Below, piece by piece: positions 51,861-51,997 of a DNA stretch of 63,217 bases. Position 1 is the first letter of the stretch. Every line of letters begins with the position of its first letter. The stretch comes from Escherichia coli. GTDB taxonomy: Bacteria > Pseudomonadota > Gammaproteobacteria > Enterobacterales > Enterobacteriaceae. Under the pieces are notes generated by a model. The model did not search any database, was not told where the DNA came from, and worked only from the letters and a program-made list of their open reading frames with translations. The stretch lies in assembly GCF_003334255.1 (NCBI RefSeq), contig NZ_QOWU01000026.1; one strand, 5' to 3'. A program made the translations under genes and the position numbers.

Positions 51861-51873
51861 TTGTTAAAGAGCA
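51861..51873 (-). promoter_or_regulatory. boxA (nutL-like), perfect rrn-type
   Basis: The minus strand reads TGCTCTTTAACAA, identical to the E. coli rrn boxA consensus, about 75 nt downstream of the PL start. Confidence 0.6.
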
Positions 51874-51915
51874 TTTTGCGGCGGGTTAAGTCGCGCCGTA
51901 CGACTGATTTATGTA

Positions 51916-51930
51916 GCCCTGTGTAAGGGC
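51916..51930 (-). promoter_or_regulatory. boxB-like hairpin in PL leader
   Basis: GCCCT-TACAC-AGGGC (minus strand). The stem is the same as in lambda boxB, but the pentaloop differs. Confidence 0.35.
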
Positions 51931-51952
51931 GCGATGTTTCTGGCTTGAAATA

Positions 51953-51997
51953 AATATAACTTGCGGTGATTTTTGTGTAAATACCGTTGGTGGTTAT
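51953..51997 (-). promoter_or_regulatory. PL promoter with OL-like operators
   Basis: Minus strand TTTACA (51981-51976)-17 nt-TATATT (51958-51953). It overlaps the 17-mers TATAACTTGCGGTGATT (51955-51971) and ATACCGTTGGTGGTTAT (51981-51997), whose half-sites (TATAAC/ATCACC/ATAACC) match those at OR. Confidence 0.5.

Follow-up and report, generated by a model that had tools for sequence, protein, structure and literature searches.

The put RNA of phage HK639 is a proven antiterminator RNA. Such put elements act in cis and bind the zinc-binding domain of the RNA polymerase beta' subunit. They are about 70 nucleotides (nt) long, consist of two stem-loops without a boxA, and are blocked in their activity by mutations in that domain (PMC9378689). 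A second N-independent route is offered by the host: boxA and the Nus factors can block Rho without N and loop the RNA to the polymerase, and the Nus complex of the rRNA (rrn) leaders both loops RNA to the polymerase and chaperones its folding (PMC5725501, PMC7665894). Lambdoid phages of the Eru1 type were reported to be without homologues of N, CII and CIII (PMC8044961); nut and boxA are mentioned neither in that report nor in its sequel. Here, a 63,217-nt stretch of Escherichia coli DNA (NCBI RefSeq assembly GCF_003334255.1, contig NZ_QOWU01000026.1), which is called the window and which carries a lambdoid prophage, was analysed, and a boxA-headed RNA module in the leader of the early-left promoter (PL) of this prophage is described. 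The DNA from PL to the leader is 97-99% identical to that of the O104:H4 / O103:H25-type Stx2a phages P13374, TL-2011c and phi191, whose records leave about 600 bp at the PL leader without annotation. The parts of the module are as follows.

51706..51873, minus strand: whole module (boxA, linker, junction RNA and 3' tail), 168 nt
51873-51861, minus strand: boxA, TGCTCTTTAACAA, the 5' edge of the conserved module
51724..51836, minus strand: core of the junction RNA, in which the long-range helix P1 closes P2, P3 and P4
51836-51831 with 51729-51724, and 51826-51824 with 51739-51737, minus strand: P1, CCUGUU with GGCAGG and CCC with GGG
51820-51809, minus strand: P2, CACG-UAAA-CGUG
51803-51779, minus strand: P3, UCAUCGG.UG-CGAUC-CG.UCGAUGA
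51771-51744, minus strand: P4, with a GAGA tetraloop at 51762-51759

Extent and distribution of the module were established by sequence searches. A covariance model found one copy in the window (202.6 bits, E=1.7e-46), the runner-up scoring 9.4 bits (E=2). In a sensitive DNA search, homology with phi80, HK225 and a Klebsiella phage (KO-TP1) began at the first base of boxA and ran for about 190 nt at 93-94% identity; these phages share with the window neither the promoter, nor the operators, nor a GCCCU hairpin that lies upstream of boxA. The first-pass annotation of the window, made from its letters alone, had ended at boxA, so that the conserved, structured stretch of about 155 nt which starts there escaped it. 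Judged by these alignments, the boxA-headed junction RNA is the real unit of conservation.

The module is identical (100%) in many Stx2a phages, 94.6% identical in phi80 and 74-82% identical in divergent members. Its core motif was found in at least 120 viral contigs, and roughly 100 viral contigs contain true copies, one per locus. Among annotated phage records, 108 contain it; among 5,426 complete E. coli genomes, 249 do, and one of these is DH5alpha, which carries it by way of phi80dlacZ. In a bacterial set with one genome per species, all 11 true copies were in Enterobacteriaceae. Position and orientation are constant across many immunity types, with one copy per phage beside the repressor gene, and in the divergent members too the module heads the leftward operon, in a gap without annotation just past a gene for a LexA-family repressor. 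The first gene downstream varies nearly everywhere (antirepressors, small unknown proteins, an HNH protein, a RelA/SpoT-like protein, the 'N' open reading frame (ORF) of phi80), and so does its distance from the module, which ranges from about 25 nt to more than 250 nt. For 77 of the 112 loci, the conserved part opens about 7 nt past variable -10 hexamers and thus together with the transcript. A conserved RNA that begins with the transcript among such varied neighbours fits an element that works as RNA without a phage partner.

The boxA itself, TGCTCTTTAACAA, has a single exact copy in the window, where all other sites carry at least two mismatches and about 0.002 exact 13-mers are expected by chance. 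It agrees with the rrn-type consensus UGCUCUUUAACAA and is identical in 13/13 positions to the boxA of the E. coli K-12 rrnB leader, which sits 2 nt past the boxB hairpin. Both the rrn-type match and the rrn-like order of hairpin and then boxA, as claimed in the first-pass annotation, are thereby borne out. A boxA-like 13-mer stands ahead of all 71 distinct module copies examined, most commonly in the form TGCTTTTTAACAA. From its sequence, boxA is taken to be a binding site for NusB-NusE (S10). The boxC motif UGUGUGGG, which follows about 20 nt downstream in rrnB, is absent after the boxA of the window. In most subtypes of the module family, a predicted hairpin ends 0-5 nt before boxA; no single one of these folds convincingly outdid its shuffles (z from 0.0 to -2.0), and the hairpin sequences are not conserved. 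In phi80-type leaders (L143:2460-2500), GCTGAGCGAAG lies just ahead of boxA and is like the rrnB boxB hairpin GCUGAG...GCGAAG (L148:240-265); part of the phi80-type leader may be derived from an rrn leader or may mimic it.

The fold was analysed by comparison. Minimum-energy folds differ among the subtypes, and single-sequence folding was uninformative, so the comparative analysis was relied on. An unfitted MAFFT alignment of 41 distinct sequences and a model-guided alignment of 44 sequences were used. In the unfitted alignment, 97.6% of the cells were paired and 8 of the 30 pairs had changed on both sides (29 cells); in the model-guided alignment, the corresponding values were 98.6% and 12 of 30 (49 cells), three of the compensatory pairs being in P1. 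The observed covariation was reached by none of 500 shuffles in either alignment, and slid partners paired in 32-46% (unfitted) and 30-46% (model-guided). The model-guided alignment is biased towards the structure; it mends a two-column misregister of the Edno5-type rows, which hampered the counting of P1 in the unfitted one. The compensatory changes show the module to fold, in this model, as a four-helix junction RNA in which P1 encloses P2, P3 and P4.

Single helices vary to different degrees. For the outer helix of P1, most types have CCUGUU/GGCAGG, and the Edno5 type has GUAAC/GUUAC. P2 occurs as CACG/CGUG, CACA/UGUG, CGCA/UGCG and CGC/GCG, with loops that differ (UAAA, AAAA, AGAAA, CAAA, AUAAAA) among near-identical copies. 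P4 is replaced by unrelated simple hairpins in three loci (L064, L144 and L147), for example CUCUGU-GACA-ACAGA and CACGAU-CUCA-AUCGUG. P3 has the form UCAYCGG...UCGRUGA, with a U-A pair in the window in place of C-G; together with its flanks (GUAUCACCGGGUGCGAUCCGGUCGGUGAGA), it is almost invariant even in a 74%-identical member, which suggests sequence-specific recognition. A reading of the module as coding sequence was rejected on the grounds of 1- and 2-nt indels in the P2 loop, the absence of a shared frame, and the compensatory pairs. Just 5' of the junction, a hairpin ACAG-C-GUC-AAU-GAC-CUGU (51849-51832, minus strand) competes with P1 for CUGU in most types, and ACAG...CUGU is retained in subtypes with a differing intervening sequence; this hairpin may act as a switch or form in passing while the RNA folds during transcription. 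A search of 51400-52100 against Rfam at E<=10 returned only a chance DicF fragment, and at gathering thresholds no family was found in this region. Neither the larger folded RNA nor strings of its core sequence were found in the searchable literature, outside the scope of which lay the phi80 genome paper and the HK639 paper (King et al. 2011).

The strongest argument for the function of the module, a circumstantial one, is the slot that it shares with put. In the HK639 record, a 'putL-like antiterminator RNA' is annotated about 75 nt downstream of pL, and only the left operon has one. The HK639 leader opens with the same stretch of about 45 nt as the phi80-type leaders (TCCATCGAAACGAAACATCGAYAGCTGAGSGAAGTTAGCCAGCGGCG); thereafter, put follows in HK639, and in phi80 a hairpin, boxA and the junction RNA follow. 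The leader of a prophage of Enterobacter soli (L140) agrees with that of HK639 up to the end of the first put hairpin, from where it proceeds with boxA and the module. The put core was found in none of the 112 module-bearing loci. A shared leader followed by either put or the module indicates alternative cassettes at one position. The leader of the window has a related feature.

51884..51905, minus strand: put hairpin-1 remnant, AGTCGTACGGCGCGACTTAACC, 22 nt, between the GCCCU hairpin and boxA

This remnant aligns with AGTCGAACGGCGCGACAGTAAACC of HK639 putL and AGACGAACGGCGCGTCTTTAAACC of HK022 putL; on this alignment, it is read as the leftover of a put-type first hairpin, which marks an old recombination joint of put and boxA-module cassettes. 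The module itself is a different RNA. HK022 putL was located by means of the residues given in PMC9378689, and the module showed no blastn similarity to it and had no covariance-model match in HK022 at E<=1. Identity with HK639 putL was rejected (best covariance-model score, 8.4 bits), and the covariance model detected no module in lambda, the right arm of phi80, the rrnB leader, HK022 or HK639.

Further upstream lies the hairpin on which the first-pass annotation had placed weight.

51930-51916, minus strand: GCCCU-UACAC-AGGGC hairpin, near the 5' end of the transcript

The pattern GCCCTN5AGGGC has one exact match in the window, at this site, and the hairpin is present in the predicted fold of the leader. 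Its stem is the same as that of lambda boxB (nutL GCCCUGAAGAAGGGC, nutR GCCCUGAAAAAGGGC; checked on NC_001416), as had been noted. The hairpin and the likeness of its stem therefore stand; the weight given to it does not, in view of the loop, the distance of 42 nt to boxA and the poor conservation. The loop is UACAC, as opposed to GAAGA/GAAAA of the lambda type. The hairpin was seen only in Eru1-type leaders, most members of the module family being without it; in relatives, the loop may be GACAC, and the 93%-identical FHI_NMBU_10 has GCCAU...AGGGC, in which one stem pair is broken. As a boxB, the hairpin was thus rejected: it has the wrong loop, no N is encoded, it is not conserved and its stem is broken in a close relative. 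It is probably a 5' structural or stabilising hairpin outside the conserved module.

The promoter, its operators and the neighbouring prophage features are located as follows.

51981-51976, minus strand: -35 hexamer of PL, TTTACA (sequence reading and consensus scan)
51958-51953, minus strand: -10 hexamer of PL, TATATT, separated from the -35 hexamer by a 17-nt spacer
51970-51955, minus strand: OL operator ATCACCGCAAGTTATA, within the PL spacer
51996-51980, minus strand: second OL operator ATAACCACCAACGGTAT, covering the -35 hexamer, read from the sequence only
52656-53369, minus strand: cI of the lambdoid prophage
about 53466-53668, plus strand: cro of the lambdoid prophage
52084..52105, minus strand: intrinsic terminator-like hairpin AGCCCGGCCCATGCGCCGGGTT with TTTCTTT after it (8 pairs in the terminator scan, of which 6 are G-C)
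44907-44882, 43923-43900 and 41120-41100: terminator-like hairpins in the PL operon, candidates for readthrough

PL (51953..51981, minus strand) scored 10/12 in the consensus scan, and from the position of the -10 hexamer its transcript is predicted to start near 51946. In the 63 kb, the operator consensus ATCACCNNNNGTTATA is matched perfectly at exactly two sites, in the PL spacer (51955-51970, minus strand) and at OR (53375-53390, plus strand), so that the reading of PL as TTTACA-17-TATATT with operators matching those at OR was upheld; a 22-nt inverted repeat (I2, 82%) also joins 51949-51970 to 53375-53396. From the predicted start to the first credible ORF at 51441, the leader of the window comprises about 500 untranslated nt. 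The hairpin at 52084..52105 is terminator-like and would end the upstream transcript of cI and an endonuclease remnant, thus insulating PL. This remnant (52124-52426, minus strand), situated between cI and PL, encodes the 100 C-terminal amino acids of a restriction endonuclease of the BsuBI/PstI family. The same gap holds a full methyltransferase and endonuclease in P13374 and HicAB in E. coli FHI_NMBU_10, and is a cargo slot.

On the right arm, cro is followed by ORFs of 97 and 125 amino acids, a helicase, a primase, NinB, NinG and a Q-like antiterminator (58158-58688). The 4.7 kb from PR to Q are closely packed ORFs with one weak terminator-like hairpin, inside the primase gene. Pattern searches found no boxA or boxB on the plus strand after cro, and the covariance model, run with filters off for the window, found no second copy of the module in the window, in the right arm of phi80 or in other loci; the earlier statement that no second boxA or boxB follows cro thus agrees with searches of the whole window. 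Two candidates were rejected. CGCTCTTA at 54150-54143, a lambda-type boxA, lies on the minus strand and has the wrong sense for the PR transcript, and the 15/17 match of 54138-54154 to the PL hairpin region is at about chance level in 3.3 kb. The PR operon also contains, after the 97-amino-acid ORF, an untranslated gap of 208 nt (53993-54200, plus strand) with an unusual G-rich tract, GAGGAGGGGGGTTGGGGGGTGGAG, at about 54047-54072.

A protein partner of the N family was equally not found among 21 early ORFs of the window in Pfam or PHROGs scans. Together with the reported lack of an N homologue (PMC8044961), this agrees with the N-independent option that the first-pass annotation had raised. 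An ORF of 61 amino acids with a basic N-terminus (51503-51688, minus strand) was considered as an N candidate and rejected, also as a conserved gene, because in two relatives (L043 and L066) its frame diverges immediately past the shared DNA.

Taking these observations together, we lean towards the reading that the boxA-headed module is a cis-acting, N-independent antitermination leader RNA that uses the host Nus factors through boxA. It probably replaces N in phi80-like and O104:H4-type Stx phages. The binding of Nus factors, the contact with polymerase and the antitermination that we infer would proceed as follows. PL, of which promoter and operators are observed and the start is predicted, would fire when repression by CI is lifted. 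The nascent boxA would bind NusB-NusE(S10), and this complex, joined by NusG, NusA and SuhB, would tether the 5' portion of the transcript to the moving polymerase, as happens in rrn operons, a step proposed because the 13 positions of boxA are those of rrnB. The downstream RNA would then fold into the four-helix junction, the closure of P1 perhaps being aided by the tether. The near-invariant P3 and the junction residues would contact RNA polymerase or a Nus factor, in the role of N or put. The complex so modified would resist Rho over the untranslated leader and read through early-left terminators; as targets, tL1A and tL1B are annotated downstream in phi80, and the window has the terminator-like hairpins of the PL operon. 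The right arm would need no such element, because the ORFs from PR to Q are packed without a convincing terminator.

Several points weigh against this reading. The covariation signal stems from about five divergent lineages, and most members of the family are more than 90% identical. P3, the proposed recognition element, hardly varies, and the support for its pairing is mainly one compensatory pair. Folded as a single sequence, the leader is not significantly more stable than its shuffles (z = -1.1). Most copies carry TGCTTTTTAACAA, which is one base away from the rrn consensus. Terminator-like sites in the PL operon are not enriched (18, versus 15.7 in shuffled sequence). The positional equivalence with put is circumstantial, and boxA-Nus complexes can also repress, as in the case of suhB (PMC5725501).

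Among the other explanations, it appears unlikely that boxA acts on its own, recruiting NusB/E/G/A/SuhB and shielding the leader from Rho as at CRISPR arrays, with a junction RNA that serves an unrelated purpose (transcript stability, a small RNA released by processing, or control over how the first gene is translated). The perfect rrnB match and the untranslated leader of about 500 nt suit this explanation, and boxA alone suffices against Rho elsewhere (PMC7665894, PMC5725501). The mosaic boundary, however, makes boxA and junction RNA one inherited block with fixed spacing, the variable distance to unrelated first genes argues against translational control, and Nus factors alone are not known to beat intrinsic terminators such as the annotated tL1A of phi80. 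The asymmetric, N-less antitermination suggested in the first-pass annotation is a fair reading, except that its Nus-factor-only form leaves the near-invariant junction RNA unexplained.

We give an equally low rating to a negative or conditional regulator that would limit or gate expression of the PL operon (an attenuator, a sensor of the riboswitch type or, as at suhB, a repressor dependent on Nus) and to a small RNA acting in trans. The module has highly conserved unpaired nucleotides around its multi-helix junction, a trait typical of RNAs that bind a ligand or a factor, and repression of suhB by boxA-Nus complexes offers a precedent (PMC5725501). After P1, however, no terminator or expression platform sequestering a ribosome-binding site was seen, and the sequence flanking the module on the 3' side varies; the module sits where put, a positive antiterminator, is found elsewhere, and matches no riboswitch or small-RNA family of Rfam.

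Less probable still is a true nutL for an N-like protein, an explanation that goes back to phi80. The record JX871397 labels TGCTTTTTA as 'nutL boxA; putative' and CACGTAAACGTG, which is P2, as 'nutL core'; it names an ORF of 98 amino acids 'N, similar to lambda N', puts two terminators, tL1A and tL1B, after that ORF and is without a nutR. X13065 likewise calls the 98-amino-acid ORF N. The boxA at PL of phi80 was thus noticed before by the annotators of this phage as a putative nutL, and P2 is indeed a small hairpin with an A-rich loop 3' of boxA, to which 'N' or another unrecognised protein might bind. As a protein of the N family, however, phi80 'N' was rejected: it belongs to a PHROG of unknown function, has no Pfam N match and lacks an N-terminal arginine-rich motif. 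It accompanies the module in 9 of the 99 loci scanned, being absent from the window, P13374, HK225, KO-TP1 and Edno5. The P2 loop, moreover, varies among otherwise near-identical copies, and no member has a nutR. A chance boxA match or a functionless, selfish relic, although consistent with the recent horizontal spread that identities above 93% in most copies would imply, is highly improbable in view of the 0.002 exact 13-mers expected in the window, the retention of boxA, architecture and compensatory pairs in 74-79%-identical members, and the constant position and orientation under many immunity types.

Other regulatory RNAs and promoters were observed in the prophage. Within the PL operon, an Rfam match to sRNA-Xcc1 (69.5 bits; 50665-50753, minus strand) lies between an ORF for a secreted-looking protein of 183 amino acids (50890-51441) and an AntA-type antirepressor gene, and is preceded by a near-consensus promoter, TTGACA-18-TATATT (50867-50838, minus strand). 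Farther along, C4 antisense RNA (41860-41945) and isrK (41971-42049) are found on the minus strand ahead of a gene for an antirepressor (41128-41835); this region, which is headed by a promoter scoring 11/12 (42085-42056), represents a P1/P7-style C4-ant control module within a lambdoid prophage. On the plus strand, sok and STnc100 regions were located at 58719-58893 and 62696-62912; the sok antitoxin RNA (hok/sok type) comes directly after the Q-like gene, and STnc100 is further right, in the late-region leader.

To our knowledge, nobody has so far explained how early transcription of Eru1 phages passes through terminators. The Eru1-type Stx2a phages include those of the 2011 O104:H4 and 2006 O103:H25 outbreaks, and the module is a concrete, mutable candidate for their early antitermination, placed upstream of antirepressor, kil, gam and recombination genes that shape induction. 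The boxA was marked earlier in phi80; new is the structured, boxA-headed RNA of about 170 nt as a widespread phage module. More tentatively, the module might be an early antitermination signal of a third kind in phages: an N-independent RNA, tethered through boxA, which the Nus factors hold on the polymerase and help to fold and in which P3 and the junction act on polymerase in the manner of put or N; it would then govern the early-left operons of O104:H4-type Stx2a phages and phi80 and be swappable with put cassettes. If true, this would place a new mechanistic class between nut sites, which depend on a protein, and put RNAs, which do without one; it would also be an example from nature of Nus factors working together with a structured RNA other than rRNA.

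Compared with the described systems, the module resembles lambda nutL in its location after PL, in the presence of boxA and in the boxB-type stem of the upstream hairpin, and it was called nutL by the phi80 annotators. In lambda, however, boxA precedes boxB, the loops read GAAGA/GAAAA, the gene for N lies a short way downstream and nutR comes after cro; here, the boxA of a lambda-type nut site is present, and a boxB 3' of it, a cognate N and a nutR were not found. With boxA-only Nus antitermination at CRISPR arrays (PMC7665894), the leader has in common that boxA starts a long untranslated transcript which would otherwise be exposed to Rho; those cases are without an associated conserved structured RNA. 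With the E. coli rrn leaders (boxB-boxA-boxC; NusA/B/E/G, SuhB and S4), it shares the identical boxA 13-mer, a predicted hairpin that ends a few nt 5' of boxA and independence of a phage protein. It differs from them in that boxA is followed, in a phage early operon, not by boxC UGUGUGGG but by a conserved junction RNA, which is absent from rrn. Finally, put is distinguished by its size and fold from the module, which has about 170 nt and a four-helix junction, is always headed by boxA and shows no similarity to put in sequence or model; HK022, moreover, has a putR in addition, unlike the module family. In common with the put elements of HK022 and HK639, the module is a structured RNA right after PL in lambdoid phages that lack N, has no accompanying protein partner and, as in HK639, is confined to the left operon.

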